Origin: Candidatus Portnoybacteria bacterium RBG_19FT_COMBO_36_7
Lineage (GTDB): Bacteria > Patescibacteriota > Minisyncoccia > Portnoybacterales > GWB1-42-6
Direction of reading: 5' to 3'
DNA length: 64,000 nt
Assembly (NCBI GenBank): GCA_001819495.1
Contig: MHMW01000021.1
Location: 10,706-74,705, forward strand
The notes under the pieces were generated by a model. The model saw only the letters and a list, made by a program, of their open reading frames with translations. It was not told the DNA's origin and did not search any database. The stretch's first letter is position 1. Every line of letters begins with the position of its first letter. Below are positions 6,660 to 35,899 of this stretch, one piece after another. Position numbers and translations under genes: made by a program.

Positions 6660-6740
6660 AAAAGTGTTGAAGGAGAGATTTGCCCCAGTACCAGATCCCG
6701 CTTTGCGGGAACGGTACGGGGTAAAAACTCTCAAAAACAG

Positions 6741-6823
6741 TGTCCTCGGTGGGAGTTGAACCCACAACCCTTTCGGGATACGGTCCTAAGCCGTACGCGT
6801 ATGCCAAATTCCGCCACGAGGAC
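6741..6823 (-). tRNA. tRNA-Leu (anticodon TAG) with a long variable arm
   Basis: Reverse complement folds as a cloverleaf: acceptor GTCCTCG/CGAGGAC, anticodon arm TACGG-CTTAGGA-CCGTA, variable arm TCCCGAAAGGGTT, T arm GTGGG-TTCAACT-CCCAC. Confidence 0.8.
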
Positions 6824-6886
6824 AAAAATGCCAATCCCTGCCTGCCGGCAGACAGACGCCACTCAGACATATTCAAATTTTACGCC

Positions 6887-8332
6887 ATGGATAATCTAAA
6901 ATCAATCTTTCAAGAAAAGAACAGAGCCCTGATTTTTGCCGTTATAGGCCTTTTTTTGATATTTTTTATCGCTTTGCAGGCCCCGACTGATCCTGATTTT
7001 GGCTGGCATTTGCACAATGGGAGCGAAATAATAAAAAATCGCGCCATCGCTCATTTTGACCAGGATTCGTTTACCATGAACGATTATCCATGGATCTGCT
7101 TCTCATGGATATCCGATATATTCATAGTGTTATTACAAAAATTGTTCGGGCTTTTCGGACTATCAATGTTTTTTTCGATAATAGCGGGAACGGCTTTTTT
7201 CTTGGCAGCCCGAGCTTTTAAATCGGAAGTTGTCTATCAGGTAATAATAGCGATGTTTGGCACAATCTTGAGCGTTTCAACTTTGGGCGTAAGAGATCAA
7301 ATGTGGGGTATTCTTGGTTTAGCTGTGCTGATATACATTCTAATTCGGTGGCGCGACAACCCTCAAAACAAAATAATCTGGTATCTTCCTTTATTATTCG
7401 CGGTCTGGACTAATCTGCACGCTGGCATTATTGTGGGAATAGGTACTATGTTATTGTTTTTTTTAATAGAATCCTGGAAGAAAAAAACTGTGTCGAAAAA
7501 TTTGATCCTGGTCTTTTTTTTGTCAATCCTGGCCACCTTCGTTAACCCTTACGGCCCGCGGATGTATCAAGAAACATGGATGACGCTGATAGATTTTTCC
7601 GGCCGTTTTCAATTGATAGAATGGCGGCCTTTATTTTTTGCCGGCCGGGATATCCTTCTGCCGGCTTTTATTTATGCTGCCTGTCTGCTGGTCGCACAGT
7701 TTTACATCAAAAAGCGTGATCTGACATTAATAATTATATCTGCCTTGTTTTTTGCTTTCGCGTTGGCTGCCTGGCGGAATCTGCCGCTTTTTTTTATTGT
7801 CAGTTCACCCCTAGCCGTTATGACGCTCAAAGACCTTATTGGCAAAAATCTATTAGATTTGATAAAAATGCCGGCAATTTTATTGACATTTTTTATCCTG
7901 ACATTCTATATTGGCTGGCAAGATATAAAATCAGTCTGGGCGATAGACACCGATCAGAAGCTCTTAGCCCAAGAAGCTGATTTCCCCTATTATGCCGTAG
8001 CATTTATTCGCGATAAAATGCCTAAAGCTGAAAGCTACCGACTTTTTAATGAGTATAACTGGGGCGGCTATATCCTTTGGCAAATACCGGATCAAAAAGT
8101 CTTTATTGACGGGAAAATGCCCCATTGGAAATTGCCCGACAGAAATATTTTTGCTGATTATTTAACTTTTCAGCAAGCACAAAATTTAAGCGATTTGGCT
8201 TTGTTGATTAAAAAATACGATTTAAATTTTGCTTTGATTCGCCGCAATTCTCCTATTGTCTTTAAGCTTTCCTTTTTTGGCTGGCATAATATCTATGAGG
8301 ACGATATGGCTATAATCCTAAAAAGGCCGTAG
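6887..8332 (+). CDS. Large polytopic membrane protein, possibly a GT-C-type (ArnT/PMT/YfhO-like) glycosyltransferase. The track ORF start at 6740 is rejected because it overlaps the tRNA-Leu
   Basis: At least 12 predicted TM helices, with a periplasmic-loop aromatic-rich segment and a C-terminal soluble domain. Neighbour of a GT2 polyprenol-phosphate glycosyltransferase. Confidence 0.35.
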   Translation: MDNLKSIFQEKNRALIFAVIGLFLIFFIALQAPTDPDFGWHLHNGSEIIKNRAIAHFDQDSFTMNDYPWICFSWISDIFIVLLQKLFGLFGLSMFFSIIAGTAFFLAARAFKSEVVYQVIIAMFGTILSVSTLGVRDQMWGILGLAVLIYILIRWRDNPQNKIIWYLPLLFAVWTNLHAGIIVGIGTMLLFFLIESWKKKTVSKNLILVFFLSILATFVNPYGPRMYQETWMTLIDFSGRFQLIEWRPLFFAGRDILLPAFIYAACLLVAQFYIKKRDLTLIIISALFFAFALAAWRNLPLFFIVSSPLAVMTLKDLIGKNLLDLIKMPAILLTFFILTFYIGWQDIKSVWAIDTDQKLLAQEADFPYYAVAFIRDKMPKAESYRLFNEYNWGGYILWQIPDQKVFIDGKMPHWKLPDRNIFADYLTFQQAQNLSDLALLIKKYDLNFALIRRNSPIVFKLSFFGWHNIYEDDMAIILKRP

Positions 8333-9195: not shown

Positions 9196-9662
9196 ATAAT
9201 CTCTTTAAGCTGTCTCGGAGAGGGCTTTTTGGTTTACCTTTGTTAAATCCCGCAAAGCGGGAGCTGCAAAGCAGCTATTTAACAGGGTGACTACTCTCGT
9301 CAACCGACATTTTAGGTCTTGCCTGACCCACTCCGACCCAAGGTCGGAGCAATCGACACTACTTCCTCTTATATTAAAAAATATAAGAAAGGAGGTGATC
9401 CATCCACAGCTTCCGCTACGGATGCCTTGTTACGACTTCGTCCCTGTCACCGAGCCTACCTTGAAACCAATAAATTGGCGCTTCCGGTATTCCCGGCTTC
9501 CTTGACGTGACGGGCGGTGAGTACAAGACTTGAGAACGTATTCACCGCGCCATGGCTGATGCGCGATTACTAGCGATTCCGGCTTCATGAGGTCGGGTTG
9601 CAGACCTCAATCCGAACTGGGACCGGCTTTGATGGGATTAGCTCCATGTTACCATTTCGCTT

Positions 9663-9693
<31 letters not shown>

Positions 9694-10332
9694 AGCCCAG
9701 GTCATCAAAGGATCACGCTGATTTGACGTCATCCCCGCCTTCCTCCCCATTGTCTGAGGCAGTCTGCTGCGACACTTGTAACGCAGCATAAGGGTTGCGC
9801 TCGTTTCCTCACTTAAGAGAACAGCTCACGCCACGAGCTGACGACAACCGTGCAATACCTGACCCATCTGTCCTTGTGAGACATCGGCTGTTTCCAGCAG
9901 ACTTCAGATGGATGTCTAGACCTGGTAAGGTTCCTCGCTTGTCGTCGAATTGAACCACATGCTCCACCGCTTGTGCAAGTCCCCGTCTATTTCTTTGAGT
10001 TTTAGCCTTGCGGCCGTACTTCCCAGGCGGCAAACTTAACGCGTTAGCTTCGCCACCTGAAGGGTCGATACTTCAAATGGCTAGTTTGCATAGTTTAGGG
10101 CGTGGACTACAAGGGTATCTAATCCTTTTTGCTCCCCACGCTTTCGTCTCTCAGGGTCAGAGTAGCGCTAGCTGAATGCCTTCGCTTTTGGTGTTCCCTA
10201 CGATATCAACGGATTTCACCCCTACACCGTAGGTTCCATCAGCCTCTCGCACTCTCTAGTTTTGACGTTTCTTGCGCGGCGTTGGAGTTGAGCCCCAACA
10301 TTTAACACAAGACTATCAAAACCCCCTACAGA

Positions 10333-10363
<31 letters not shown>

Positions 10364-10454
10364 TGGGGTACTCGTCTTACCGCTCCTGCTGGCACGAGTT
10401 TAGGAACCCCTTATTCTTAGGGTACGCTCATTACGCTCCTCGCTTTCGCTCGTC

Positions 10455-10600
10455 GCTCAAATTAAAATTTTAAAGTTAAAAGTGTGAAATCATTGTATCG
10501 CTACGCAATGATTTATATATAATCATCCCGCGAAGCGGGGCACCTTAATTTTTAACTTTTCATTTTCCATTTTTAACTTAGCTCCGAACGTAAGTGAGGA
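10455..10600 (-). repeat. Insertion (~150 nt) in the V3 hairpin of 16S, built from the genome-wide AT-rich repeat family (aaagttaaaa / aatttttaac arms) around a GC palindrome
   Basis: Flanking 16S sequence aligns to E. coli ~430-500. The inserted segment is caaattaaaattttaaagttaaaagtgtgaaatc - core with cccgcgaagcgggg - ccttaatttttaacttttcattttccatttttaactt. The arms are inverted repeats. Confidence 0.5.
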
Positions 10601-10989
10601 GCGCATTGCTCCCCTATAAAAGAGTTTTACACCCCGAAGGGCTTCTTCACTCACGCGGCGTCGCTCGATCACGCTTTCGCGCATTGTCGAAGATTCTCGA
10701 CTGCAGCCTCCCGTAGGAGTCCGGACAGTTTCTCAGTTCCGATGTTGGGGGCCGACCTCTCAGTCCCCCTACCCGTCATCGCCTTGGTGGGCCGTTACCT
10801 CACCAACTAGCTGATAGGACGCAGGCCTCTCCTGAAGCAACCCTTGCGGGTCTTTAAATGAGAATGACATAAGTCCCCTCATTACTATCTTGTATTAGTC
10901 CCGATTTCTCGGGATTATTCAAAACTTCAGGGTAAGTTACCTACGCGTTACTAACCCGTTTGCCACTACCGCTCGTGCTTCGCTATCGC

Positions 10990-11045
10990 TCATCACTCGC
11001 TCAAATTAAAAGTTTAAATTTTCATTTTTAATTTTTAACTTAAGT
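10990..11045 (-). repeat. Insertion (~55 nt) in the V1 hairpin of 16S from the same AT-rich repeat family
   Basis: caaattaaaagtttaaattttcatttttaatttttaactt lies between CAAGTCGAACG...GCACAAAC and the GAGCGGTAGTGGCAAACGGGT region. Confidence 0.4.
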
Positions 11046-11726
11046 TTGTGCTGAACATAGTGAAGCACAAACGATCGTTCGACTTGCATGCCCGTATCCA
11101 CGCCGCCAGCGTTCATCCTGAGCTAGAATCAAACTCTCATTGTAAATGTTAGAACTAAAATTGCTGAATCGATCTTCGACCGTCCCACAAAATGCGGGGC
11201 AGTAAAGCGACTCAACACCTCTAGAATCCAACAAGTTTTTTCGAGACAACTTAAAAAGATTATCTCATCTCGCCGAAGCTCCGAATGGAGCATAGGCGGA
11301 TTAGCTCAAAAAAAATCTGGTTTATCCCGTTACATCCGCCAAAAAGACGGAAGTATTTATTACATCCCTTATAGTAGGATGCAATGGGATTTATTTAACC
11401 TTACTTTTTGTCTGTATTTTGTTGTTAAAGTTCAATCAAGTTTATCCATTTATACCCTCTTTCGCCCTGCAGGCTACGGACGGGTTATTCTCTTACGAGA
11501 ATAAAAAATACAACTAGTCAGACCTCTTAACTAATATTTAATTAAGAACCCCTCAAGTTGTATTTTCTAACTAACAAACTGATAACTGACAAACTGATTT
11601 TTTTTAATGGGTTCTTCTACATAGGCGTATTTTTCCTTTCCGCCCCGCAACTGCAGGGCTCTATGCAATGTCTATTTTACTCCTCTCAGTTAGCTTGTCA
11701 AGTGCTTAAATTTTACTTATCAAAAA

Positions 11727-12535: not shown

Positions 12536-13546
12536 TTAGAAAGAATTAGCCACAAAGTCGGTCATCTCAGCTAATCTACACGCATAACCCCACTCATTAT
12601 CATACCAGGCCAAGACCTTGACCAAGGTTTCATCCATCACCATCGTGTAATTTGCGTCAACGATGGAAGAATAGGTATTGCCTTTGTAATCTATAGAAAC
12701 CAGAGGTGCGTCTTCGATGCCCAGAATACCATCCAGTTCCTTTGTCTGAGACATTTTTTTGAATGTCATATTTATTTCTTCAGCCGAGGTCGGGGTTTTG
12801 ACAACGCAGACAAAATCGGTAATCGAAACGACCGGTGTCGGCACTCTTAGCGAAATTCCATCCAGTTTTCCCTCAAGCTCGGGTATTGTTTTTGTGACGG
12901 CAGTAGCCGCGCCGGTGGTTGTCGGAATAATGGAAAGTGCGGCGGCACGGGCTCTTCGCAGATCCTTATGCGGCAAATCCAGAAGGCGCTGGTCGTTGGT
13001 ATAGCTGTGAGCAGTGGTCATAAAACCGTGCAAAATCTTGAATTTATCGTTCAAAACCTTGACCACCGGGGCCAGGCAATTGGTGGTACAAGATGCCATT
13101 GATATAATATCGTCTTTTTCTGAATCGTACTTTTCTTCGTTCACGCCGAGAACATATGTCTGGATTTCCCTGCTTTTTGTCGGCGCGGAAATTATCACTT
13201 TTTTGGCGCCGGCCTCAAGATGTTTTTTGGCACCTTCATATTCTGTAAAAACCCCAGAACATTCAAGCACGATATCAACGCCCATTTCTTTCCAGGGCAA
13301 GCGAGCGGGCTCTTTTTCTGCCAGTATTTTAATTTTTTTGCCGCCAATTTCCAATCCCCCGTCTTTTCCTTTAACGATTTTATCATAAACCCCATACATG
13401 GAATCATACTTTAACAAATGAGCTAAAGTTGGCGCATCGGTCAAGTCATTGATAGCCACAATTTCCAATCCAGGAAAATGGCTTAAAATTCGCTTTAATG
13501 TTGGACGCCCTATTCTCCCAAATCCATTTATAGCTATTTTGGTCAT
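12536..13546 (-). CDS. gap: Type I glyceraldehyde-3-phosphate dehydrogenase
   Basis: MTKIAINGFGRIGR, ASCTTNCLAP, WYDNEWGY. Full-length, 336 aa. Confidence 0.9.
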   Translation of the reverse strand: MTKIAINGFGRIGRPTLKRILSHFPGLEIVAINDLTDAPTLAHLLKYDSMYGVYDKIVKGKDGGLEIGGKKIKILAEKEPARLPWKEMGVDIVLECSGVFTEYEGAKKHLEAGAKKVIISAPTKSREIQTYVLGVNEEKYDSEKDDIISMASCTTNCLAPVVKVLNDKFKILHGFMTTAHSYTNDQRLLDLPHKDLRRARAAALSIIPTTTGAATAVTKTIPELEGKLDGISLRVPTPVVSITDFVCVVKTPTSAEEINMTFKKMSQTKELDGILGIEDAPLVSIDYKGNTYSSIVDANYTMVMDETLVKVLAWYDNEWGYACRLAEMTDFVANSF

Positions 13547-13659: not shown

Positions 13660-13893
13660 TTAACACTCTAGTTTTAGCAATTGACAGATTTTTTCCTTGT
13701 CAAAACCAATGACAATTTCTCCGTCAATATCCGAAACCGGCACCCCCATCTGCCCAGATTTTTCTATCATTTCTTCCGCTGCTTTGCTGTCGCTGCTCAC
13801 GTCAATATCATTAAATTCAATCCCTTTTTCTTTCAAAAAAGCTTTAAGAGTATGACAATAAGGACACGTTGGTGTTGAATAAATTTTGATCAT
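13660..13893 (-). CDS. Glutaredoxin-like (NrdH/YruB-type) thioredoxin-fold protein
   Basis: MIKIYSTPTCPYCHTLKAFLKEKGIEFNDIDV ... GVPV..IDGEIVIGFD. CPYC active site. Confidence 0.65.
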   Translation of the reverse strand: MIKIYSTPTCPYCHTLKAFLKEKGIEFNDIDVSSDSKAAEEMIEKSGQMGVPVSDIDGEIVIGFDKEKICQLLKLEC

Positions 13894-13919
13894 TTTTAAC
13901 GCGACTCTAATATCCGAAT

Positions 13920-13985
13920 ACATCCGAATTACTCTAATTTTATTCGTGTCATTCGGGTGTCAATTCGTGTCATTCGTGTCGCTAT
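13920..13985. repeat. Tandem decamer repeats (cattcgtgtc / cattcgggtg) with a catccgaatta motif, immediately upstream of the glutaredoxin gene. The same family occurs at 53125-53225
   Basis: catccgaattactctaattttattcgtgtcattcgggtgtcaattcgtgtcattcgtgtcgc. Confidence 0.5.
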
Positions 13986-14935
13986 TATCTATTCTTTAAA
14001 TAATTGTATGCAGAAAGGGCGGATTTTGCGCCTTCGCCAGCGGAAATTATTATCTGTTTTTCCAATATATCCGTCACGTCACCGGCCGCAAAGATCCCCG
14101 GCACGGATGTAACACAACTATTATGATCAACGATAATCTCTCCTTTCTCGTTACATCTGAGCAATCCCTTAACAAACGAAGACGCGGGCGTTGAACCGAT
14201 TTCAACGAAAATTCCGTTGACCTCTATCTGTTTTTCTTCTTTGGACCTGAAATTCCGATAAACAAGAGCTGTGACGAATTTATCTCCCAGTATTTTAATC
14301 AGCTCTACCTCTGATAAAGTTTGAACTTTCGGCTCTTTTTTTAATTTTTCCTGCAGATTTTTATCATCACCTCTTAGCTCATTATACCGATTTAAAAGAT
14401 AAATTTTTGAAGCGTATTTCGTCAACTGCCAGACAGTATCCTGCCCGGAATCTCCCGCTCCAATTACTGCCACTATTTTATCACGAAAAAGAGGCGCATC
14501 ACAAGTTGCACAATAAGTGATGCCTTTACCCTCAAATTCTTTAGTACCAGGCACTTCTAATTTTCGTTCGGCACGGCCGGTCGCGATAATAATTGACTTT
14601 GTTATATAAATTCTTCTGTCTGAACAGACCTCAAATTCTCCGCTGTCTGGCGCCATTTTTATGTTTTTTACTTCTTCTCCTTCTTTTATTTCCAAATCAA
14701 AAATTCCCTGGCCTGAGTTTTTTTCAAATTTTTTTAAATGCTCGGCAAATTTTTTGGTCAAATCAGCTCCCATAAGGCCGGGCACGCCCAGATAATTTTC
14801 AATTTGATAACCTTCCATCATCTGGCCGCCCAAGATTTTGGCAACAAGCAAAGTTTTTATCTTTTTGCGGGCTGCATAAATGGCTGCTGACATCGCGCCC
14901 GGCCCGCCGCCGATAATGATTAATTCGTAATTCAT
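13985..14935 (-). CDS. trxB: Thioredoxin-disulfide reductase
   Basis: IIIGGGPGAMSAAIYAARK (FAD GxGxxG), CATCDAPLF (redox-active CxxC), VIGAGDSGQD (NADPH site), GIFAAGDV. Confidence 0.85.
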   Translation of the reverse strand: MNYELIIIGGGPGAMSAAIYAARKKIKTLLVAKILGGQMMEGYQIENYLGVPGLMGADLTKKFAEHLKKFEKNSGQGIFDLEIKEGEEVKNIKMAPDSGEFEVCSDRRIYITKSIIIATGRAERKLEVPGTKEFEGKGITYCATCDAPLFRDKIVAVIGAGDSGQDTVWQLTKYASKIYLLNRYNELRGDDKNLQEKLKKEPKVQTLSEVELIKILGDKFVTALVYRNFRSKEEKQIEVNGIFVEIGSTPASSFVKGLLRCNEKGEIIVDHNSCVTSVPGIFAAGDVTDILEKQIIISAGEGAKSALSAYNYLKNR

Positions 14936-15975
14936 AATAGAAAATCTTTTATCTGTTTTTTTATATTGCATCCTATGATTTTACAGCTTTTTTGGCATTT
15001 TTGCAATCTTTTTCTTTCCAAGCCTGCCTTCTCTCCTTGCCACACCTCTCGAACGCTAGAATTTGAAATATTGCCTAAAACATTGCTCCGGAAGCATAAG
15101 GCGACATCACCGTTTGGCCAAACGACCAGATTATTATAAGGCGCAAGACATTGCCTTTTTTTAAATGAATCAGGGTCAAGATAATATTGATAAATCAATT
15201 TTAAATAAAATGGCGGATTTTTTATAATTTTTGACCTTTGTTCGGTCAGTGGCTTCAGATATTTTATAACCTGATCTTTTTCCGGCCACAGATCGCTTTT
15301 GGTTTGCCAATTATTTTTATAATCGGCATCGATATTAAAATCAAGCGGCTGGAAGATCAAATCAAGTCCCTTTAATGAGGCGTAGCTAATAATTTCATCA
15401 ATTTCTTTGATGTTTTGCCTAGTCAGAAGCATCCCTATTTCTACGCGCGTACCTTTGCCCTGCCGCAATTCATTTAGACAATCAAGCGCCTGCTTGGTTT
15501 TTTCAAAAGTTCCTGCCAAGCCTCTTAATTCATCGTGAACCAACGGATTCAAACTATACAAAGAAATTTTGACGCTTTTTAAATTCCATTTTAATAATTC
15601 TTGCGTCGCATCCCTGTCAATCATCGTTCCGTTAGTGTTTAAGCTAACAGGTAAATTAAGCTGATTACATTTTTCTATTATTTTAAAAACTAATTCTTTT
15701 TTCAGAAGCGGCTCTCCGCCATTTATCTCTATTTCCTGTGCGCCAAGCCAGTTTTTTATATCTTCAAGCGCCCGAAGCCATTTTTCATCTTCCAGTTCCC
15801 GGCCTGAATCTTCGTTTTTCCAGATATCGCAATGGCGGCATCTTAAGTTGCATTTTTTTGTAATAACTAAACTGACATACCGCGGCCGGCTAAAAGATGT
15901 GCCAAAACCCGAGTCCGATGCATTTGTTAAATATCTGATTGCTGATTTTAATTTCATGCTATTTTTCTCCTTCAA
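14932..15975 (-). CDS. Radical SAM enzyme with a C-terminal SPASM/twitch-like cysteine cluster
   Basis: VITKKCNLRCRHCDIW (CX3CX2C) ... GGEPLL ... C-terminal C..17..C, CQKSCKIIGC. It overlaps the upstream hypA-like gene by 17 nt and trxB by 4 nt. Confidence 0.7.
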   Translation of the reverse strand: MKEKNSMKLKSAIRYLTNASDSGFGTSFSRPRYVSLVITKKCNLRCRHCDIWKNEDSGRELEDEKWLRALEDIKNWLGAQEIEINGGEPLLKKELVFKIIEKCNQLNLPVSLNTNGTMIDRDATQELLKWNLKSVKISLYSLNPLVHDELRGLAGTFEKTKQALDCLNELRQGKGTRVEIGMLLTRQNIKEIDEIISYASLKGLDLIFQPLDFNIDADYKNNWQTKSDLWPEKDQVIKYLKPLTEQRSKIIKNPPFYLKLIYQYYLDPDSFKKRQCLAPYNNLVVWPNGDVALCFRSNVLGNISNSSVREVWQGEKAGLERKRLQKCQKSCKIIGCNIKKQIKDFLL

Positions 15976-16201
15976 TTTCCTTCAGTTTCCAAGCGCTACC
16001 CTTAATCCGGTGAATTTTAACCTTGATATTTGGCATCAATAAATTAATATTGTATTTCAAATTTTTGGGAGATACGCTTTCGCCGTGCTCAATAATATTG
16101 CCAAGTTCCACCACTATCTCCTTAATTTTTGAAAGCCCGTTTTGGCGGGCCTCCTCTTGAGCTACCTTGACTATTTCGTTGGCCAAATGAAAATCATGCA
16201 T
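15959..16201 (-). CDS. hypA: HypA-like hydrogenase nickel-incorporation protein, truncated (80 aa). It keeps the N-terminal MH(D/E) Ni-binding motif but lacks the CxxC...CxxC zinc finger
   Basis: MHDFHLANEIVKVAQEEARQNGLSKIKEIVVELGNI aligns with the HypA N-terminal domain. ...GSAWKLKEI aligns with the segment that normally follows the first CxxC. Confidence 0.5.
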   Translation of the reverse strand: MHDFHLANEIVKVAQEEARQNGLSKIKEIVVELGNIIEHGESVSPKNLKYNINLLMPNIKVKIHRIKGSAWKLKEIEGEK

Positions 16202-16202
16202 G

Positions 16203-17474
16203 TTAGTGTGTAGCGCAGGTCAGACAGGGGTCATAGGCCCGAATAAGCATTTTTATCAGGTCTTCACATTCTTCCTTGCATAAAGCTTTACCCCCATTGG
16301 TCAGCTGCGGAAGATAAGAAATCATATCCTCTTCCAGGCGCGCCAGGTTCTGGGCGGTCGGAGTAATAATATTGACGTTTTTTATCAAACCGTCTTCGCC
16401 GACCTCATAGTAATAAAAAAGTGTGCCGCGCGGCGCCTCTATCGCGCCAAAACCTTTACCAGCCTTGGGCTCAAAAGGATGGGACTGGACTGATTCAAAA
16501 TCAATATCTCGGGCTTTTTCCAAAAACAGTTGGGTTTCTTCCACGCAATCAACCATTTCAATCGCCTGGGCCAGAATGTTATAAAAAGGATTACCAATCG
16601 GCAGGATTAAATCCGTTTCCCGAAACAAGGATTTGGCCTTGGGGTTTAAATACTTTGCATTCAGATTCAGCCTAGCCAGAGCCCCTACCATAAATGGCTT
16701 TCCTTTAAATTCGGAACGTTTTGCCGCCGGATTTTCTTTAACCTGAAATTCCTGGATTTGAGGCATAAATTCACCAACCGGTTCTGTTTCTTTCTGCCTC
16801 TTGACCAAGCCATCATAAATCGCGTATTCGTCCGGCAGGCTCAAAGCGACAAAATCACACTCCCTATTAAATAAAGGATATTTAAGCGAACTGAAAAATT
16901 TTGCCAAAGAAACAGCGGAAGCCAAAGCCTTAACGCTCGCTTTTTCAATTTCTTTCAATTTTTCTTTGTCTGGCGCTTTTGTGAATCCGCCGACAATCGG
17001 CGTTAAAGGATGAATGCTTCTGCCGCCGATGATCTCAATTGTCTTGTTGCCAAAATCTCGCAGGACCAGCGCGTCGGCCGCCCGGCCCGGATATTTTTTT
17101 ATCAGCGCCAGATCATTTTTAATCCCGAAAAAATCGGAAAGTGAAAAGAAAAAAAGGTGCAAGGCATGACTGTTTAAAATCTGCCCCATCATCATCAGCC
17201 GCCTGAGCAAAATCGTCTGCTCGGAAGGAAAAATACCCAAAGCCGCTTCCAGTGCCTTTAAACTCGTCAAATTATGGACCACCGGACAGACCCCGCAGAT
17301 GCGGGAAGTGATTTGGGAAACTTCGTTATGGCTGCGGCCTTGTAAAATTCCTTCCAGCAACCTGGCTCCTTCATATAAATTCAGCCTGGCTTTGACAACA
17401 TTACCGTCAACTATATCGGCGACAAATCCGGCATGCCCCTCAATTTTTGCGATATGGTCTATTTTAATCTTCAT
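16203..17474 (-). CDS. [NiFe]-hydrogenase large (alpha) subunit, short group-3b/sulfhydrogenase type
   Basis: N-terminal RICGVCPVVH (L1 motif) and C-terminal DPCLTCATH (L2 motif). 423 aa. Confidence 0.85.
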   Translation of the reverse strand: MKIKIDHIAKIEGHAGFVADIVDGNVVKARLNLYEGARLLEGILQGRSHNEVSQITSRICGVCPVVHNLTSLKALEAALGIFPSEQTILLRRLMMMGQILNSHALHLFFFSLSDFFGIKNDLALIKKYPGRAADALVLRDFGNKTIEIIGGRSIHPLTPIVGGFTKAPDKEKLKEIEKASVKALASAVSLAKFFSSLKYPLFNRECDFVALSLPDEYAIYDGLVKRQKETEPVGEFMPQIQEFQVKENPAAKRSEFKGKPFMVGALARLNLNAKYLNPKAKSLFRETDLILPIGNPFYNILAQAIEMVDCVEETQLFLEKARDIDFESVQSHPFEPKAGKGFGAIEAPRGTLFYYYEVGEDGLIKNVNIITPTAQNLARLEEDMISYLPQLTNGGKALCKEECEDLIKMLIRAYDPCLTCATH

Positions 17475-18259
17475 TTTTTTATAATTTTATTTTTTGGTAT
17501 TACCGGTGGCGACGGGTACATATCGTCCAGCATACCAAATCTCTGCATAATCAAATCTATTTCCTGCTGCGAAAATCCGTAAACTTCTTTTAATTTATTA
17601 TTGAAATTATTGATGGCAGCGCCCTTAAGCGGGCCTCGGCAGCCGTCGCACGGATACGCAGAAGAAGGGCAGGGCGCGCCGCAGCCGCCCAAAATCATGG
17701 GCCCGAGGCATGGCTCGCCTTTTTGCAGAAGACATTCGTTTCGTTTCAGTTGGCATTCATAGCAGACCGGCCTTTGCGGAATTTTTGGAATAACGCCGGC
17801 TATCAACTCCTTTGCCGCCCACAAAAATTCTTCTTTGTTGATGGGACAGCCCGGAATTTCCAAATCCACTTTAACGTAATATCTGACCGGCCTGATATCC
17901 GGATTGGCAATGCCTTCAAAGTTTTTATAAACATAGCGCAGGCGCTGTTCTTTGTTCTGGTAATTTTTAAGCTCGGCGATACCGCCCAAACAAGCACAGG
18001 CACCAATCGTTACAAGAAGCTTCGTTCGCGCGCGCAGATCCTTGACCCTGGCCACATTCTGAGAGGTAATCGGTGTTCCTTCGACAAAAACCACATCGTA
18101 ATTTTCCGGCTCTGCCCGATCTTCTATCAGCGCAAAATCACCTATTTTTATCTTTTCGGTCAGCTCCAGCAATCTCTCTCCCAAATCTAAAATCGCCACC
18201 TGGCAGCCTTCGCAGCAGGTCAAAGAAACAATCGCGATACTCGGCTTTTTGTTAGACAT
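17471..18259 (-). CDS. [NiFe]-hydrogenase small (delta) subunit with C-terminal Fe-S cysteine clusters
   Basis: IAIVSLTCCEGCQVAILD ... GACACLGG ... CYECQLKRNECLLQKGEPCLGP..GGCGAPCPSSAYPCDGC. Confidence 0.75.
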   Translation of the reverse strand: MSNKKPSIAIVSLTCCEGCQVAILDLGERLLELTEKIKIGDFALIEDRAEPENYDVVFVEGTPITSQNVARVKDLRARTKLLVTIGACACLGGIAELKNYQNKEQRLRYVYKNFEGIANPDIRPVRYYVKVDLEIPGCPINKEEFLWAAKELIAGVIPKIPQRPVCYECQLKRNECLLQKGEPCLGPMILGGCGAPCPSSAYPCDGCRGPLKGAAINNFNNKLKEVYGFSQQEIDLIMQRFGMLDDMYPSPPVIPKNKIIKK

Positions 18260-19034
18260 ATAAGGAATCTAAACTATTTTTTGTGTACTTATACAGATTC
18301 GTGATGTTCTCTTCGTTTAAAATCTGAATGGCATAATTCCAATGAAACGAAATCCAATCCCCCACTTCAACATTTGGCAACATTGTTTTATCCCAATTAA
18401 TTTCTTTTTCTTTCATGCTTCCAAACTTTATTTTCTTTCTCCCGATTAATGGGTTATATTCAACAATAATTTTTAACTTTTCATTTTTAAATTTTAACTT
18501 TTTAACCCTCCCCCAGCCAACCCGGCAGATATCTTTTAGATCCGTCCTGCCTGCAAAATCAATGCTGCCGGTTACCGCCCCCAGAACCAGAACATGAAAA
18601 CTGTGGTGCGGTTTGGAAGAAACTGGAATTGCATCAGATTTTTCTTTCGCGGCTTTTCTTGATAATAAACCGGGGCCAGAAAATCTTTTAACAATCAATT
18701 CGCGCAAATCATTAAAAGTTACCTTTTCCAATAACTCATTGCCGAGCCAATAAGCTTCAATTACTTTTTTGTTCAAAGACCCTGTTTTAATTCTGTTTTT
18801 CTTGGCAATCAATTCGTAATAAGGATAGGCTGCCTGAAATCTTTTTAGGGCCGGGATTATATCGGGTATGCCCAATTTCCCCCTGATAAATTCTCTTAAG
18901 TTTTTCTGGTCTTCCGACAGCCCGCAAAGACCCATCTCATTTGGAATCAAGCCATATAGCGCCGCGATTTTAGGCCCTGACATTGATTTTTTCTCCCAGC
19001 AGTTTAATTTTTTCCAATATAAAACGGTACCCAA
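18252..19034 (-). CDS. Hypothetical protein with a C-terminal HypC/HupF-like domain. The alternative start MSGPKIAALYG at 18983 gives a shorter overlap with the upstream gene
   Basis: C-terminal DICRVGWGRV...VGDWISFHWNYAIQIL resembles HypC MC(L/I)(A/G)(I/V)PG...VGDWVLVHVGFAI. The N-terminal ~185 aa have no recognisable family. An in-frame AT-rich repeat insertion (KKLKFKNEKLK) is at 18440-18500. Confidence 0.4.
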   Translation of the reverse strand: MGTVLYWKKLNCWEKKSMSGPKIAALYGLIPNEMGLCGLSEDQKNLREFIRGKLGIPDIIPALKRFQAAYPYYELIAKKNRIKTGSLNKKVIEAYWLGNELLEKVTFNDLRELIVKRFSGPGLLSRKAAKEKSDAIPVSSKPHHSFHVLVLGAVTGSIDFAGRTDLKDICRVGWGRVKKLKFKNEKLKIIVEYNPLIGRKKIKFGSMKEKEINWDKTMLPNVEVGDWISFHWNYAIQILNEENITNLYKYTKNSLDSLYV

Positions 19035-19881
19035 GAATCATTATCAGACCTCCGGTTATCAGGCCGCTTGAAACAATCTCGCCAAAATTTATTTTTCCCG
19101 TTGAAGCGAATGCCAGCAAAGTGGTAATGGGAGATCCTAAAAGCAGAATTGCGGCTGCTGTAGAAACAGGAATATGCCTCAAACCGCTGTACCATGTTAT
19201 GACATAACCGAACAAGATAAAAGAAGCAATCTGGATCCAGAAAACCTGTTCAAAGTTAAGCTGGCTGATTATCGTCAATTGTCCGCTACCGGCCAGAAAA
19301 ATCAAAATCAGAATGGCGCCAAAAAACATTCTGCCCCAGGCAACGATCTTGGGTGACAGGCCTGCCAGCGCGTATTTTGATATAACGCTTTCAACCGCCC
19401 AAAGCAATGTGGCCAAAAATACATAAAAATCGCCGCGGTTAAAAGACAAATGAAGCGCTTTTAGGGCAATCAGATTTCCTGCCAATATCATCAGAGCTCC
19501 AATCAGCATTTCTTTTCTTATTTTTTCGCGCAAAAATATCGAGGCCAAAATCATAGTGTATATAAACATCGTTTTGTGGATAAAAGAACCTTGAGCGGCT
19601 GAGGTAATGGATAAACCTTTGAAAAATAACAAGAATGCGGCGCCGCCGCCCACAAATCCGATTACCAAAAGCATCAGCCACTGCTTTTTTGTCAGCTTGG
19701 CCAGCTGGCGCCATTCTTTGGCCAGCAGCACAAATCCGCTAAAAGCCAAAGCGACCATCACATTTTTTAAAAAAGCAAATAAGTACGGATTGACTCCGCC
19801 AACACCGTATTTGTTGATAAAAATCGAAAATCCCGAAATAATGGCGGTGATAAAAACTAATAATAATCCTTTTTTATTCAT
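18970..19881 (-). CDS. EamA/DMT-family 10-TM transporter
   Basis: Two duplicated 5-TM EamA-like halves. Confidence 0.7.
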   Translation of the reverse strand: MNKKGLLLVFITAIISGFSIFINKYGVGGVNPYLFAFLKNVMVALAFSGFVLLAKEWRQLAKLTKKQWLMLLVIGFVGGGAAFLLFFKGLSITSAAQGSFIHKTMFIYTMILASIFLREKIRKEMLIGALMILAGNLIALKALHLSFNRGDFYVFLATLLWAVESVISKYALAGLSPKIVAWGRMFFGAILILIFLAGSGQLTIISQLNFEQVFWIQIASFILFGYVITWYSGLRHIPVSTAAAILLLGSPITTLLAFASTGKINFGEIVSSGLITGGLIMILGYRFILEKIKLLGEKINVRA

Positions 19882-19990
19882 ACCAGGTAGTGAAAATTCG
19901 ACTTGTTATTGATAGATTATCAATAGCTTAGTCTTTTAATAAAATTACAGATGCCATATAGTAAAATCCGCATTATTTTTTATCCTGCTT
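19873..19990. repeat. Miniature inverted-repeat element, family B. The 21-bp terminal inverted repeats GCCAGGTAGTGAAAATTCGAC / GTCGAATTTCTACTACCTGGC enclose a core with the palindrome ttgatagattatcaa
   Basis: accaggtagtgaaaattcgac ... ggtcgaatttctactacctggc. Other copies are at 32903-32992, 47968-48045 and 48128-48192. Confidence 0.55.
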
Positions 19991-20231
19991 CGCGGGACGG
20001 TCGAATTTCTACTACCTGGCATGTTTTTTTCTTCGCACTTTTAAATAATTTATTAATTTCTTGCGCCTGTTTTTTGCTGATCTTCTGCACTATCACATTA
20101 TTTTGGGTCAGAACCCAGTCGCCTTTTTTGACAGAAATTATGGCGCCGACCTCCTGCGGCCCTTTTTGCGATTTCACCGTCGCAACGCCTTTTTTTAATC
20201 CGATAACTTGTTTTGGAATTGTCAGACACAT
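19980..20231 (-). CDS. hypC: Hydrogenase assembly chaperone HypC/HupF
   Basis: MCLTIPKQVIGL ... GDWVLTQNNVIVQKI; about 83 aa. Confidence 0.7.
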   Translation of the reverse strand: MCLTIPKQVIGLKKGVATVKSQKGPQEVGAIISVKKGDWVLTQNNVIVQKISKKQAQEINKLFKSAKKKTCQVVEIRPSREAG

Positions 20232-20249
20232 ATTCACTGTCGTTCAATT

Positions 20250-20320
20250 TAAAAAATGAAAATGAAAATGAAAATGTAAAAAAGTCATCCAGTTTTTAGT
20301 TTTTAAATTTTAATTTTTAA
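20250..20320. repeat. AT-rich short-period repeat block (aaaatg x4, then ttttaaatttt units)
   Basis: aaaatgaaaatgaaaatgaaaatgtaaaaaagtcatccagtttttagtttttaaattttaatttttaaatt. Confidence 0.4.
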
Positions 20321-20321
20321 A

Positions 20322-21185
20322 TTAAATTGCTCCCTGCACATTTTTTATCTGGTCATATCTGAACACCGGGCCCTGCTTGCAAACATAATGGCTTCCTATC
20401 CCGCAATGCTGGCAGACTCCGACTCCGCAGTGCATCCGCCGTTCAAACGAAAGATAAATATCTTCGTCAGCAAATCCGTATTTTTTCAATTTCTCCAAAA
20501 CGGCTTTATACATCACCGGCGGCCCACAGACAAATGCTCTGGCATCGGCAACAACAGAAACAACCTCAAATAACTTTGTAACCAAGCCAACGCACCCCTT
20601 CCAGTCTTCACAAACTTTATCTATGCTTAATTGAAGATTGACGCCGTCTTTCTGCCAAGATTCGTATTCATTGCGAAATAACATTTCCGAAGGATGCTTG
20701 GCGCCGTAAAATATCTGAATCTTGGCGTCTTTACCTAAAAATTCATTCTTGCCCAAAATCAAAGTCCTTAAAGGTATTAAGCCCAGTCCCCCGACAACTA
20801 TTAATAAATTCTTTTTTTCTTCATTTTTAACTTTAAACTTTGAACTTTGAACTTGAGCGCCAGCAATGGGCCAGCCGATGCCAAAAGGTCCTCTGATGCC
20901 GATTTTATCCCCCACTTTCAAAATATGCATTCTATTGGTCAGTTTCCCTATCGCTCTTATGCAAAGTTCTAAATTTTTTCCTGGCTTGTTGCAGGGCGCA
21001 AAGGGCGCTTCGCCAAACCCAGGCAAAGACAGCATAATGAATTGGCCTGGATAAATTCTGGCATCTTCATCAAATCTTAATTGAAAATGCATCTTGTCAA
21101 AGCCCAATTCAAACAGTTTGATGCCCGGCACATGGTCGGAAATCTTCAGAATTTTTGCCGTTTTGGTCTCGTAAAGATTAAACAT
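20322..21185 (-). CDS. Hydrogenase gamma subunit / AsrB-like FAD-NAD(P)-binding oxidoreductase with a C-terminal [2Fe-2S] cluster
   Basis: FNR-like fold motifs (GPFG, LLIVVGGLGLIPL) and C-terminal RRMHCGVGVCQHCGIG. It carries an in-frame repeat insertion QVQSSKFKVKNEEKK at 20815-20850. Confidence 0.75.
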   Translation of the reverse strand: MFNLYETKTAKILKISDHVPGIKLFELGFDKMHFQLRFDEDARIYPGQFIMLSLPGFGEAPFAPCNKPGKNLELCIRAIGKLTNRMHILKVGDKIGIRGPFGIGWPIAGAQVQSSKFKVKNEEKKNLLIVVGGLGLIPLRTLILGKNEFLGKDAKIQIFYGAKHPSEMLFRNEYESWQKDGVNLQLSIDKVCEDWKGCVGLVTKLFEVVSVVADARAFVCGPPVMYKAVLEKLKKYGFADEDIYLSFERRMHCGVGVCQHCGIGSHYVCKQGPVFRYDQIKNVQGAI

Positions 21186-21195
21186 ATATCCTCCA

Positions 21196-21224
21196 TTGAC
21201 AAATTAAAATAATAGTTTTAATAT
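21196..21224 (+). promoter_or_regulatory. Sigma-70-like promoter for the plus-strand zinc-ribbon gene
   Basis: ttgaca - 17 nt - taatat/tataat, followed by the RBS aaaaggagggtaag. Confidence 0.4.
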
Positions 21225-21251
21225 AATAAAAACGAATAAAAGGAGGGTAAG

Positions 21252-21386
21252 ATGGAAAAGGAGTACTGTGTGAAATGCGGAAAAGAAACACCATACACAA
21301 AGGACGTTCCTATCGACCAAAGAGATTGCTATATTGAAGGAGCTGGTCAGCTCTGTGACGACTGTTTTATCGAGATTTACGGCTAA
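21252..21386 (+). CDS. 44-aa zinc-ribbon protein (CxxC...C..CxxC) on the strand opposite to the hydrogenase operon. It is absent from the supplied ORF track (<60 aa)
   Basis: MEKEYCVKCGKETPYTKDVPIDQRDCYIEGAGQLCDDCFIEIYG*. Strong RBS 8 nt upstream, own promoter and a downstream hairpin terminator. Confidence 0.45.
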   Translation: MEKEYCVKCGKETPYTKDVPIDQRDCYIEGAGQLCDDCFIEIYG

Positions 21387-21389
21387 TAC

Positions 21390-21425
21390 CATCAGCGTTA
21401 TGCGCTATTTTAAAATAAAATAGCG
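21390..21425. terminator. Hairpin terminator (bidirectional) between the hydB 3' end and the zinc-ribbon gene
   Basis: ttatgcgctattttaaaataaaatagcgcattttatttt. Confidence 0.5.
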
Positions 21426-21447
21426 CATTTTATTTTAACAAATGATC

Positions 21448-22485
21448 TTAAGAATTTTCTATGTTTTTTAAAACTTCCGCAATATCAATACCCACAGGGC
21501 AAACGGCCGCACAGCGGCCGCATCCCACGCATCCCATAAAATTGAATTCTTCCGGAATCCTGGCGAATTTATGATAATACCAGAAATGAATCCGCTTGGC
21601 GGTGTCGTTCAGAAACTTATGCCCCAAGGCCACTTCGGAAAATTCCTGATAAAAGCAGGAGTCCCAGCAGCGCTGGCGCTCGCCCTCGCTATTTTCCAGT
21701 CCGGCTTTATCGTCAATCCGAAAACAAAAACAGGTCGGGCAGACTATTGTGCATTTGCCGCATTCAATGCATCGAGCCCCCAGCTCGTCCCAGATTTTTT
21801 GATTGTGCTTATTTTTCAGCTTATCCTGAATCTTTATCATCCGTTCGTCCAGTTTGCCTTCCTTGACCGGCCCGCTGAATTGAATATTAATATAGTCTTT
21901 ATAGCCAAAGTCATTTAAGATTTTTTGCCCAAGCAGGGAGCCGGTAAAAACTGCGTATTCGCCGTTATCCTTTTCTTCATTTATCAGTTTTGCTTTTTTT
22001 GTTCTTATGGCCGGCACCTTGGCAAAACTCATCTCGGCCAAAAAAATATCAAAGCTTAAATGCTCCAAAATATCCTCTTCCAGCGTCATCTCAAAGATAT
22101 TCTGGGACATGTCGGGGATGAGGCTATGGCCGACAATGAGCAGATTGCGTCTCCGCGCCTGATAATAGGGGTCTTTTTCAAAAACCTGGTCATAAAGCAA
22201 AACAGATTTCAAATCCAATAAATTCATGCCTAAAATCGCCGTTTTTTTTGGAGCCAATTCTTCAGCTTTTAAGATATGCCCTTTATATTCAAAAAGTTTT
22301 TCTTTTTCCGGGATAAAAAAGCGCTTAAAGGAATAAAAAGGCACGCCTTTCTCCAGCTTCAAATCTGCGGGGTATTTCAAGTGGTCAACTTCCAGCAGAT
22401 TTTCGCGCTTTTGTGTGCCAAAAACATCCCATCCGTTTTTTTGAAGGAATAAAATAAAATCTTCCAACTTATGTCTGGTTAGCAT
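21448..22485 (-). CDS. Hydrogenase beta subunit / AsrA-like iron-sulfur protein
   Basis: C-terminal CIECGKCTIVCPTCFC and CVGCGRCAAVCPVGID (2x 4Fe-4S ferredoxin motifs). About 345 aa, like sulfhydrogenase HydB. Confidence 0.75.
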   Translation of the reverse strand: MLTRHKLEDFILFLQKNGWDVFGTQKRENLLEVDHLKYPADLKLEKGVPFYSFKRFFIPEKEKLFEYKGHILKAEELAPKKTAILGMNLLDLKSVLLYDQVFEKDPYYQARRRNLLIVGHSLIPDMSQNIFEMTLEEDILEHLSFDIFLAEMSFAKVPAIRTKKAKLINEEKDNGEYAVFTGSLLGQKILNDFGYKDYINIQFSGPVKEGKLDERMIKIQDKLKNKHNQKIWDELGARCIECGKCTIVCPTCFCFRIDDKAGLENSEGERQRCWDSCFYQEFSEVALGHKFLNDTAKRIHFWYYHKFARIPEEFNFMGCVGCGRCAAVCPVGIDIAEVLKNIENS

Positions 22486-22685
22486 TATCCAAATTTTAAC
22501 ATAAAATCACAGCCGAACAAATAGTCAAAACTGTGAATAACTAAAAAGTCCCAAGCAATAAATCTTAGGGCTTTTTTACAGGAACCTTTTAATTTCCTGC
22601 TGTCTATTTCATTATCCTGAATACAAGCTTTTTCTTATGTTCAAAAGAATGAAGGAGAGAGTGATTTTTCACTCTCTCCTGATTT

Positions 22686-23928: not shown

Positions 23929-24552
23929 TTATTGAAGCTTGCTGTCTATTGCCTTTTGAAAATCCTCATAGGGCACGGCGCCGACGACTTCCTCGCCGTT
24001 GATGAAAAATGTTGGCGTTCCTTCAACTCCCTTTTCACCCGCCTTATTATACCAATCCTGACCTGCTGTTTTAGCCGCATCCGAATTATAGCATTGTTCA
24101 AAATTATCGCCCAGCTCTAATGTTTTTGCCGCGTCAAGCACGTCCTGCTCTCCCTTTATGTCGGCCTGGTGATTGAACATATAGTCCTGGAATTGATTGA
24201 ATTTTCCTGCCTGATTGGCGCAATAGCTGGCTCTGGCCAGCTCGTAAGGTGGCAAAATATAAATAATCATTTTAACCTTGCCTTTTGCAATATAATCCTG
24301 CTCTATCTTGGGCAGGGTCTGCAGGGCAAAATTTGCGCAATGAGAGCATAAAAAATTGGTGTATTCTTCTATGACCACGGATGCGTCATCAATTCCCAAA
24401 ACTATTCCCGGCGTCCCCTGGCTAGAAGTGGTTGCCGAATTTGAAATTGAGGCCGGGTTTTCATTTGGTTTTTTTTCGCTGAAATACCAACCCGCGCCTA
24501 TCAAAATCAACGCCAAGATTACCGCGATTATAATAATTCTTTTGTCTGACAT
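23929..24552 (-). CDS. DsbA-family thiol:disulfide oxidoreductase, membrane anchored
   Basis: N-terminal TM helix; FLCSHCANF (CxxC) in a thioredoxin fold. Confidence 0.7.
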   Translation of the reverse strand: MSDKRIIIIAVILALILIGAGWYFSEKKPNENPASISNSATTSSQGTPGIVLGIDDASVVIEEYTNFLCSHCANFALQTLPKIEQDYIAKGKVKMIIYILPPYELARASYCANQAGKFNQFQDYMFNHQADIKGEQDVLDAAKTLELGDNFEQCYNSDAAKTAGQDWYNKAGEKGVEGTPTFFINGEEVVGAVPYEDFQKAIDSKLQ

Positions 24553-35443: not shown

Positions 35444-35522
35444 TTTCTATCTCACCTCCTTTCAAATAAAAATTTTAATACTAATATTTATCAATTGGTA
35501 AAATTGCGATGTTTTTTTATCG

Positions 35523-35864: not shown

Positions 35865-35899
35865 ATGTTTATTGTTTCCTTCTTATTATTTATTATTTT

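Follow-up and report, generated by a model that had tools for sequence, protein, structure and literature searches.

The hydrogenase locus

We analysed a stretch of 64,000 nucleotides (nt), hereafter the window, from the genome of Candidatus Portnoybacteria bacterium RBG_19FT_COMBO_36_7 (assembly GCA_001819495.1, contig MHMW01000021.1, positions 10,706 to 74,705 of the forward strand). Its minus strand carries a run of genes which we assign, by their sequences, to a 'hyd1'-type locus of a four-subunit group 3b [NiFe]-hydrogenase in the genome of a tiny groundwater bacterium of the Portnoybacteria, within the Parcubacteria and the Candidate Phyla Radiation (CPR). A preliminary description of this DNA had listed eleven minus-strand open reading frames (ORFs) there, from the beta subunit of the hydrogenase to a glutaredoxin-like protein; all eleven are present, and their family assignments agree with the Pfam and NCBIfam models. 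From upstream to downstream, the features are the following:

22653-22680, minus strand: terminator-like hairpin (12-bp stem and T-rich tail) which ends the upstream gene
21448-22485, minus strand: beta subunit, AsrA/HydB/ShyB-like, with two [4Fe-4S] motifs (Fer4_22, E 1e-32; ShyB, 130 bits)
20322-21185, minus strand: gamma subunit, AsrB/HydG/ShyC-like (PF00970 FAD_binding_6, PF00175 NAD_binding_1, PF10418 DHODB_Fe-S_bind; ShyC, 177 bits)
19980-20237, minus strand: hypC ORF, with a GTG at 20237; likely start at the ATG at 20231, giving MCLTIP (PF01455, 44 bits, cutoff 28.5)
18970-19881, minus strand: transporter of the EamA/DMT family (PF00892, 126 bits, two repeats)
18252-19034, minus strand: ORF of a DUF6390 protein, earlier listed as unknown (PF19927, 115.8 bits, cutoff 25, model positions 3-235 of 244)
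17471-18259, minus strand: delta, the small subunit (PF01058; ShyD and HydD, 155 bits each)
16203-17474, minus strand: alpha, the large [NiFe] subunit, with RICGVCPVVH and, just before the stop, DPCLTCATH (ShyA and HydA, 257 bits each)
15959-16201, minus strand: hypA-like gene, hereafter mini-hypA, 80 amino acids, no Cys (PF01155, 26.3 bits, cutoff 28.9, N-terminal 38 residues only)
14932-15975, minus strand: radical SAM/SPASM protein, alternative ATG at 15957 (PF04055, 85.5 bits; SPASM PF13186, 34.2 bits)
13985-14971, minus strand: trxB ORF with CATC, likely start at 14935 (TIGR01292, 278 bits, below the equivalog cutoff of 343; AhpF C-terminal region, 289 bits, also below cutoff)
13660-13923, minus strand: ORF of a glutaredoxin-like (grx) redoxin of the YruB/Cp9 type with CPYC, likely start at the ATG at 13893, 77 amino acids (TIGR02196 GlrX_YruB, 102 bits, cutoff 88.55; PF00462, 67 bits)
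12536-13546, minus strand: type I glyceraldehyde-3-phosphate dehydrogenase, GAPDH (TIGR01534, 417 bits, cutoff 367)

The hairpin marks the upstream limit of the hydrogenase cluster. At the other end, the same-strand run extends past grx into the GAPDH gene, which lay outside the range first described. The E-values of the profile matches are far beyond chance and the gene order recurs in other species. In an identical public database entry DUF6390 starts at 18983, which gives a protein of 243 amino acids.

Delta and alpha overlap by 4 nt, DUF6390 and delta by 8 nt, and EamA and DUF6390 by 14 nt, while alpha and mini-hypA are spaced by 1 nt. The first two of these overlaps had been described correctly. 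Two others which had been reported hold only for particular starts: mini-hypA and the radical SAM gene overlap by 17 nt with a TTG start and are separated by 1 nt with the ATG at 15957, and the 4-nt overlap of the radical SAM gene with trxB exists when trxB starts at the internal ATG at 14935. Similarly, the statement that most junctions have near-zero spacing is right for six of the ten but not for beta/gamma (262 nt), gamma/hypC (about 90 nt), hypC/EamA (98 nt) and trxB/grx (61-91 nt).

Between beta and gamma lies an antisense ORF of 44 amino acids (21252-21386, plus strand; MEKEYCVKCGKE...CDDCFIEIYG), which is zinc-ribbon-like and has two CxxC pairs. A GGAGG site and a promoter-like TTGACA-17-TAATAT site lie ahead of it and a 13-bp hairpin with a T-run lies behind it (signals at 21196-21224 and 21400-21428). 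We found no homolog of this ORF in the 80 related loci presented below, where the beta/gamma gap often measures only 70-110 nt. A minus-strand ORF of 62 amino acids in the beta/gamma gap of the window matched no family, and its signals are poorer than those of the plus-strand ORF. Rfam models gave no regulatory RNA within the cluster, and we set aside the hits to consensus promoters inside it, which are weak (9 of 12 matches) and lie in AT-rich DNA.

Class of the hydrogenase

We collected from GTDB genomes 80 species-level loci around homologs of alpha, the window being the 81st locus, mapped the window proteins on them by tblastn, clustered all the ORFs and computed a neighbour-joining (NJ) tree of alpha. 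Both nickel-binding motifs of the large subunit, RxCGxCxxxH and DPCxxCxxH, are found in 80 of the 81 loci, and the residues C60, C63, C417, C420 and H423 of alpha are invariant among 22 relatives. All 80 full-length large subunits, that of the window included, end at the His of DPCxxCxxH. As there is no C-terminal extension, no C-terminal processing of the large subunit is expected.

When the four subunits are compared with PDB sequences, the best matches are chains A-D of 9nez and 9e1j. The only match of beta is the beta chain of sulfhydrogenase I (SH-I) of Pyrococcus furiosus (9nez_B, E 2e-26); the best match of gamma is SH-I gamma (9nez_C, E 2e-44) and that of delta is SH-I delta (E 2e-41). 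Alpha scores 245 bits against SH-I alpha and 239 against HyhL of Thermococcus kodakarensis, compared with 176 for MvhA (group 3c), 153 for Hox (group 3d) and at most 143 for Frh (group 3a). Among the NCBIfam models those of Shy/Hyd rank first for each subunit, ShyA/HydA standing well before VhuA (156 bits) for alpha. These scores are however far below the equivalog cutoffs (257 versus 700-880 bits), hence the window enzyme would belong to a clade distant from the archaeal Shy/Hyd enzymes. The make-up is that of the four-subunit enzymes, with an AsrA-like iron-sulfur beta and an AsrB-like FAD/NAD(P) gamma. From these best matches we place the enzyme in the four-subunit group 3b, as had been proposed at the outset, and this kind of enzyme is already described in CPR bacteria: the passages of Jaffe et al. 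2020 (PMC7304191) on the CPR group 3b clade 'hyd1' report hypC nearby and, in some cases, beta and gamma genes that do not directly precede the small subunit.

In many loci of the Moranbacteria type, genes resembling NuoE, NuoF and HoxU/NuoG replace beta and gamma upstream of hypC (clusters c35, c24 and c25; for instance L107 4184-6893 and L108 4114-6795). These loci have a group 3d-like diaphorase adjoining a 3b-like catalytic dimer. Some members of c25 have about 467 amino acids, and we presume that they may carry a C-terminal part resembling [FeFe]-hydrogenase. The small and large subunit genes can also be separated by an unrelated inserted gene. In 11 loci (L030, L042, L047, L054, L056, L060, L062, L066, L070, L076 and L078) it encodes a matrixin-like secreted M10 peptidase; in L043, L045, L064, L069, L074 and L075 it encodes what we take to be a small protein resembling the GxxExxY / rRNA intervening-sequence family, and in L036, L063 and L067 presumably a dehydrogenase of the Ldh_2 family.

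Conservation of the neighbourhood

The order beta-gamma-hypC-EamA-DUF6390-delta-alpha-mini-hypA is found in about 20 loci from Portnoybacteria, Kerfeldbacteria, Komeilibacteria and other Parcubacteria, with alpha identities of 46-71%. Taken separately, mini-hypA lies 3' of alpha in 64 of the 81 loci, the hypC cluster (c4) is present in 34, and EamA occurs in 23, always directly upstream of DUF6390 or of another cluster, c40. In many lineages of Parcubacteria, hypC-EamA-DUF6390 and mini-hypA accompany the delta and alpha genes.

In 45 of the 81 loci the hydrogenase is followed by the GAPDH gene, which is more widely linked to it than trxB. Among the 45 are loci of the Moranbacteria type whose only common feature with the window downstream of alpha is GAPDH. 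In other clades the genes of TPI, FBA, PGK, enolase and iPGM flank the hydrogenase. Across the Parcubacteria, the hydrogenase lies among glycolysis genes.

The trxB gene is found 3' of mini-hypA in the window and in 13 related loci, on the same strand, with spacings of 5-180 nt and usually together with grx; L017 has grx without trxB. The loci with trxB group together in the NJ tree of alpha, in one Portnoybacteria-like clade. The other 66 loci have neither trxB nor grx in the neighbourhood of the hydrogenase; six of them have similar alpha identity and downstream sequence available. The comparison of neighbourhoods, which had been proposed as a check against chance adjacency, shows the trxB-grx adjacency to be more than a single case, as it recurs in related species-level genomes. 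The same comparison does not sustain the idea of a single conserved module of eleven genes, because of these 66 loci and because the radical SAM gene has an ortholog in one locus only (see below).

It may be asked whether the whole arrangement is neutral, trxB-grx, the radical SAM gene and GAPDH being neighbours of the hydrogenase simply because the genome is compact, with an order inherited by one clade without any functional link. The restriction of trxB to one clade is compatible with a single insertion event, the gaps of 60-200 nt at trxB/grx and at grx/GAPDH leave room for separate promoters, and LemA and TPM genes, which have no evident redox role, precede GAPDH in several relatives. But the GAPDH linkage is kept across clades which otherwise differ, the presence of other glycolysis genes around the cluster in further clades is beyond what is expected from drift, and the starts nearly touch in some relatives (about 5 nt between mini-hypA and trxB in L006 and L008). 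We consider neutral adjacency unlikely.

A gene of desulfoferrodoxin (superoxide reductase) lies between alpha and mini-hypA, about 300-700 nt after alpha, in 22 loci of the Moranbacteria type (among them L022, L026, L028, L030, L032, L035, L037, L040 and L047). Since TrxB and the redoxin are found in one clade and desulfoferrodoxin in another, the hydrogenase-GAPDH neighbourhood has recruited different antioxidant genes in different clades.

DUF6390, EamA and mini-HypA

The protein which had been described as unknown with a HypC-like C-terminus belongs to DUF6390, a family which we did not find mentioned in the searchable literature. It has about 730 representatives at E ≤ 1e-10, from CPR bacteria plus one Thermomicrobiales and one Kapaibacteriota record. 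Its invariant residues are C20, H126, H127 and H130 (motif PHHSFHV), C153-R154 and H214. In an AlphaFold model computed from 38 sequences (predicted local distance difference test, pLDDT, of 94), a new helical domain rich in Cys and His is followed by a complete HypC fold, that is an OB-fold and a C-terminal helix; the modelled structure thus agrees with what had been noticed at the C-terminus. H214 aligns with the conserved His of HypC in 'GDWV.VH', and C153, as we read the sequence, opens the HypC-like domain in a context, ICRVGWGRV, which resembles the N-terminus MC(L/A)xIPxxV of HypC. C153 is internal in the 243 residues, while HypC/HupF proteins have a free N-terminal Cys at position 2, and the Pfam score for HupF_HypC is 19.7, below the cutoff of 28.5. 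We also compared the N-domain with HypD as a possible remote homolog and rejected this candidate (hhalign probability 0.1%).

A natural fusion of EamA with DUF6390 exists in Kerfeldbacteria (protein P0354). Other DUF6390 proteins are fused to helix-turn-helix (HTH) domains of the XRE and ArsR types (P0324 and P0384), and these fusions suggest that the DUF6390 domain binds a sensed ligand or metal. We examined three neighbourhoods found from divergent DUF6390 proteins: all of them read hypC-EamA-DUF6390-small subunit and then large subunit-HypA-GAPDH, and in two of the three NuoE/NuoF/HoxU-like genes take the place of beta and gamma. As EamA and DUF6390 are kept where beta and gamma are replaced, they track hypC and the catalytic dimer and neither beta/gamma nor trxB.

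The EamA protein has conserved K24, K39, H102/K103, E164, K169 and R184. It had been suggested that it might handle an unknown thiol or cofactor. Thiol handling does not fit with a transporter which travels with hypC and DUF6390, is fused to the latter, and is also present without beta and gamma; its distribution points to hydrogenase maturation rather than to thiol export.

The same observations bear on a role in sulfur handling, in which the enzyme would reduce S0 or polysulfide, with the conserved Cys residues of DUF6390 as persulfide carriers and EamA as the transporter of a sulfur compound. Beta and gamma are indeed AsrA- and AsrB-like, DUF6390 has two invariant Cys, and polysulfide reduction has been proposed for CPR group 3b enzymes in passages of PMC7304191 and PMC10811913. 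However, as EamA-DUF6390 also occur with the NuoE/NuoF/HoxU-like genes, they follow hypC and the catalytic dimer rather than the sulfite-reductase-like subunits, and the C-domain of DUF6390 is modelled as a HypC fold with the Cys and the His of HypC. We find this explanation very improbable.

Mini-HypA has an invariant MHD start, G34, H39 and E41, and 47 of the 64 members of the family have no Cys at all. The nickel motif and domain of HypA are present and the zinc site of two CxxC motifs is absent. The family profile matches residues 1-66 of T. kodakarensis HypA (E 5.7e-10). Because this match stops where the zinc domain begins and because MHD is kept, mini-HypA is the nickel-binding domain of HypA deprived of its zinc finger. 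A single-sequence AlphaFold2 model of mini-HypA (pLDDT 67) was not used, and the profile search of PDB sequences was used in its place.

A slot shared with hypD and hypE

In relatives of the Moranbacteria type, the slot between hypC and the small subunit holds hypD, hypE (whose product ends in PRIC) and, on the opposite strand, the Kae1-like half of HypF. This HypF is cut to its C-terminal half (about 370-450 amino acids, PF17788 and PF22521) beside hypD-hypE in L027, L031, L038, L040, L043, L046, L066, L073 and L080; a full-length HypF (732 amino acids) was seen only in L020. Upstream sequence of 6 kb or more is available for 51 loci: 21 of them have a member of the DUF6390 family, 13 have hypD/E, none has both, and 8 have another unannotated family, c40/c41. 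In the NJ tree of alpha, loci with DUF6390 and loci with hypD/E are intermingled among closely related large subunits, and the content of the slot varies in loci with beta/gamma as well as in loci with NuoE/F. Clusters c40 and c41 are hardly comparable to DUF6390 (hhalign ≤5%), give a weak signal to HypC (57-70%) and match each other (91%), while c57 is a short relative of DUF6390 (98%). A search with the HypD profile gave 7998 matches; the best 120 of the 7998 are all of the Moranbacteria type, and no Portnoybacteria names appear among the matches listed. Pfam scans of the 64-kb window found no maturation protease, nickel transporter or peroxiredoxin.

Because hypD-hypE, with or without the hypF fragment, and EamA-DUF6390 share this slot and never occur together in the fetched loci, one may imagine that EamA-DUF6390, with hypC and mini-HypA, form an alternative minimal route to Fe(CN)2CO which replaces HypD, HypE and HypF in host-dependent bacteria. 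A precursor might, for example, enter via EamA and be assembled on the fused HypC-like scaffold. We judge such a substitution quite unlikely; hypDEF may instead lie elsewhere in the genomes of the DUF6390 type.

The trxB-grx pair and the radical SAM gene

TrxB has the motifs of a low-molecular-weight thioredoxin reductase, with CATC (CATCD) and both dinucleotide motifs (GAGDSG). CATC is present in 12 of the 14 hydrogenase-linked TrxBs, the other two having CAVC and CTTC. The redoxin gene has trxB directly upstream. Redoxins of the Cp9/YruB type have 75-80 amino acids with CP[YW]C and are reduced by the TrxR-like Cp34 (PMC3720550); in Clostridium pasteurianum the redoxin is encoded between cp34 and the peroxiredoxin gene cp20, and carries electrons between both proteins (PMC3720550). 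By its sequences, the trxB-grx pair is of the same families as this clostridial Cp34/Cp9 thioredoxin system.

The radical SAM gene encodes the motif CNLRCRHC and a C-terminal SPASM domain. None of the named SPASM subfamilies (GeoRSP, NirJ, PqqE, AhbD) scored above its cutoff, the best being GeoRSP with 102 bits for a cutoff of 400. A single ortholog was found, in L001, at the same position and with 45% identity, so that the gene is present in 2 of the 81 loci, the window included. A radical SAM gene beside hypD/E in L020 was considered as a second ortholog and rejected (25% identity, different N-terminus). The nearest metagenomic relatives (26-33% identity) form tandem arrays of 2-3 paralogs, and no hydrogenase, trxB or grx was seen near these arrays. 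The gene had been counted as a member of the module; we find its relatives in unrelated contexts, the very observation which the preliminary description had named as speaking against this. It looks like a recent lineage-specific insertion whose function is probably unrelated.

These results allow us to weigh the explanation first put forward, namely a dedicated module in which the hydrogenase feeds NADPH to TrxB and then to Grx for disulfide reduction, while EamA and the radical SAM protein handle a thiol or cofactor. The short spacers and common strand of trxB-grx behind mini-hypA, kept in 13 species besides that of the window, agree with it, as does the overlap of the trxB start with the radical SAM stop in the window. 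Since desulfoferrodoxin takes the corresponding place in the 22 Moranbacteria-type loci, the neighbourhood moreover seems to recruit NAD(P)H-dependent redox-defence genes repeatedly. Against this, the pair is missing beside the hydrogenase in the 66 other loci, even at similar alpha identity, the radical SAM gene is nearly private to the window, EamA tracks hypC and DUF6390 and not trxB, and the clostridial Cp34/Cp9 system reduces a peroxiredoxin without a hydrogenase partner (PMC3720550). We hold a dedicated module to be doubtful. Electrons could pass from H2 to NAD(P)H, TrxB and Grx through a shared nucleotide pool, but we found nothing in these loci that points to a dedicated coupling. Most likely the pair and the hydrogenase use NAD(P)H in common, without a dedicated H2-to-thiol module.

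Proposed function of the cluster

Our preferred explanation, to which we give a probability of roughly 60%, is that the cluster encodes a reversible, NAD(P)H-linked group 3b hydrogenase and a local maturation set, beside GAPDH, with trxB-grx inserted in one clade and the radical SAM gene as a recent insertion. HypC, EamA, DUF6390 and mini-HypA would be the local maturation set of the enzyme. Work on the iron centre would fall to HypC and DUF6390 and nickel delivery to mini-HypA, while EamA would bring in or take away a small and probably anionic compound which maturation requires. A maturation protease would not be required, since the large subunit has no C-terminal extension. The mature enzyme would act as a reversible NAD(P)H:H+ oxidoreductase, in which electrons would pass from gamma (FAD, 2Fe-2S) to beta (two 4Fe-4S), delta (Fe-S) and finally alpha (NiFe). 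Its main role would be that of a redox valve: in a fermentative cell, reducing equivalents from the adjacent GAPDH would be disposed of as H2. The trxB-grx pair, placed between mini-hypA and GAPDH in one clade, would draw on the same NAD(P)H pool and would probably be co-expressed with the hydrogenase without being integral to it.

Several points weigh against this explanation. The maturation role of EamA, DUF6390 and mini-HypA is argued from position, fold and fusion, and the direction of catalysis and the nucleotide are argued by analogy with characterised group 3b enzymes. Pfam scans found no hypB, hypD, hypE or hypF in the 64-kb window. TrxB does not have the full NADPH motif HRRxxxR, with NRYNELR where the E. 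coli protein has HRRDGFR, and the hydrogenase-linked TrxBs have N[KR]Y..L[RK] at this position; its nucleotide donor is uncertain for this reason. The adjacency of trxB, conserved in one clade, might have a basis beyond a common pool of cofactor. Finally, the cluster may be transcribed as more than one unit, given the antisense ORF, with its promoter-like and terminator-like signals, in the 262 nt that separate beta from gamma.

Hydrogen metabolism in the CPR (Patescibacteria), which represent a large share of bacterial diversity, is predicted to run mainly through group 3b enzymes, and to our knowledge there is no cultured hydrogenase from these bacteria. The kind of enzyme and its clade are already known. 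What is new is the conserved accessory set of DUF6390, its transporter partner and a HypA reduced to its nickel domain, which we did not find discussed in the searched literature, together with a large subunit predicted to need no proteolytic maturation and a neighbourhood of GAPDH and antioxidant genes which we did not find described there. If the accessory set replaces part of the canonical Hyp machinery, it would be the smallest known [NiFe] maturation system, and this, if true, would be of direct use for heterologous expression of hydrogenases. A hydrogenase beside GAPDH, other glycolysis genes and antioxidant genes also offers a testable picture of the NAD(P)H balance in fermenters.

Other features of the window

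The 16S rRNA gene (9388-11144, minus strand) spans 1757 nt for a model of 1533 nt, which means about 220 nt of insertions, and has no adjoining 23S gene. CPR bacteria typically have a 16S gene of such length without an adjoining 23S. Two genes upstream of beta, a membrane-anchored DsbA/Thioredoxin_4 protein is encoded (23929-24552, minus strand); its best NCBIfam match is the Rcas_1661 family of thioredoxin-like (seleno)lipoproteins, below cutoff, and a homolog lies upstream of beta in L002, L005 and L006. Four tandem genes of small proteins resembling T4SS-pilin/TrbC occupy 35111-36768 (minus strand). A tRNA-Leu (tag; 6740-6823, minus strand) overlaps the start of an ORF of 530 amino acids (6740-8332, plus strand) without Pfam match, the true start of which is probably further downstream.

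Comparison with known systems

The closest known counterpart is the CPR 'hyd1' clade (PMC7304191, also PMC10811913), which belongs to the same lineage and has, as far as described in the passages concerned, the same architecture of large, small, beta and gamma subunits. The 'hyd1' passages of PMC7304191 name no EamA, DUF6390, mini-HypA, hyd1-adjacent trxB/grx or GAPDH linkage.

Sulfhydrogenases I and II of P. furiosus (HydBGDA and ShyBCDA) and HyhBGSL of T. kodakarensis have the same four subunits, domain content and nickel-binding motifs as the enzyme of the window. Unlike in these systems, the structural genes of the window are split by hypC-EamA-DUF6390 and the HypA has no zinc domain. The archaeal large subunits, to judge from chain lengths, extend a few residues past the motif, whereas the alpha of the window has no such extension. 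With the HypA of T. kodakarensis, known in complex with HyhL (PDB 5yxy), mini-HypA shares the nickel motif MH(D/E) and the alpha/beta nickel-binding domain; it lacks the four-Cys zinc-finger domain, adds the conserved H39-x-E41, and is encoded directly after the large subunit gene in a window without hypB.

The Cp34/Cp9/Cp20 system of C. pasteurianum (PMC3720550) shares with the window a low-molecular-weight TrxR-like flavoprotein adjoining a redoxin of the YruB family. It differs by its peroxiredoxin, for which the window has no gene, either adjacent or elsewhere in the 64 kb, the pair lying here between hydrogenase maturation genes and GAPDH.

As for the HypC/HupF/HybG family, a canonical hypC is present in the same cluster as DUF6390, which differs from that family by its internal Cys153 and by a preceding domain of 150 residues with Cys20 and His126/127/130.

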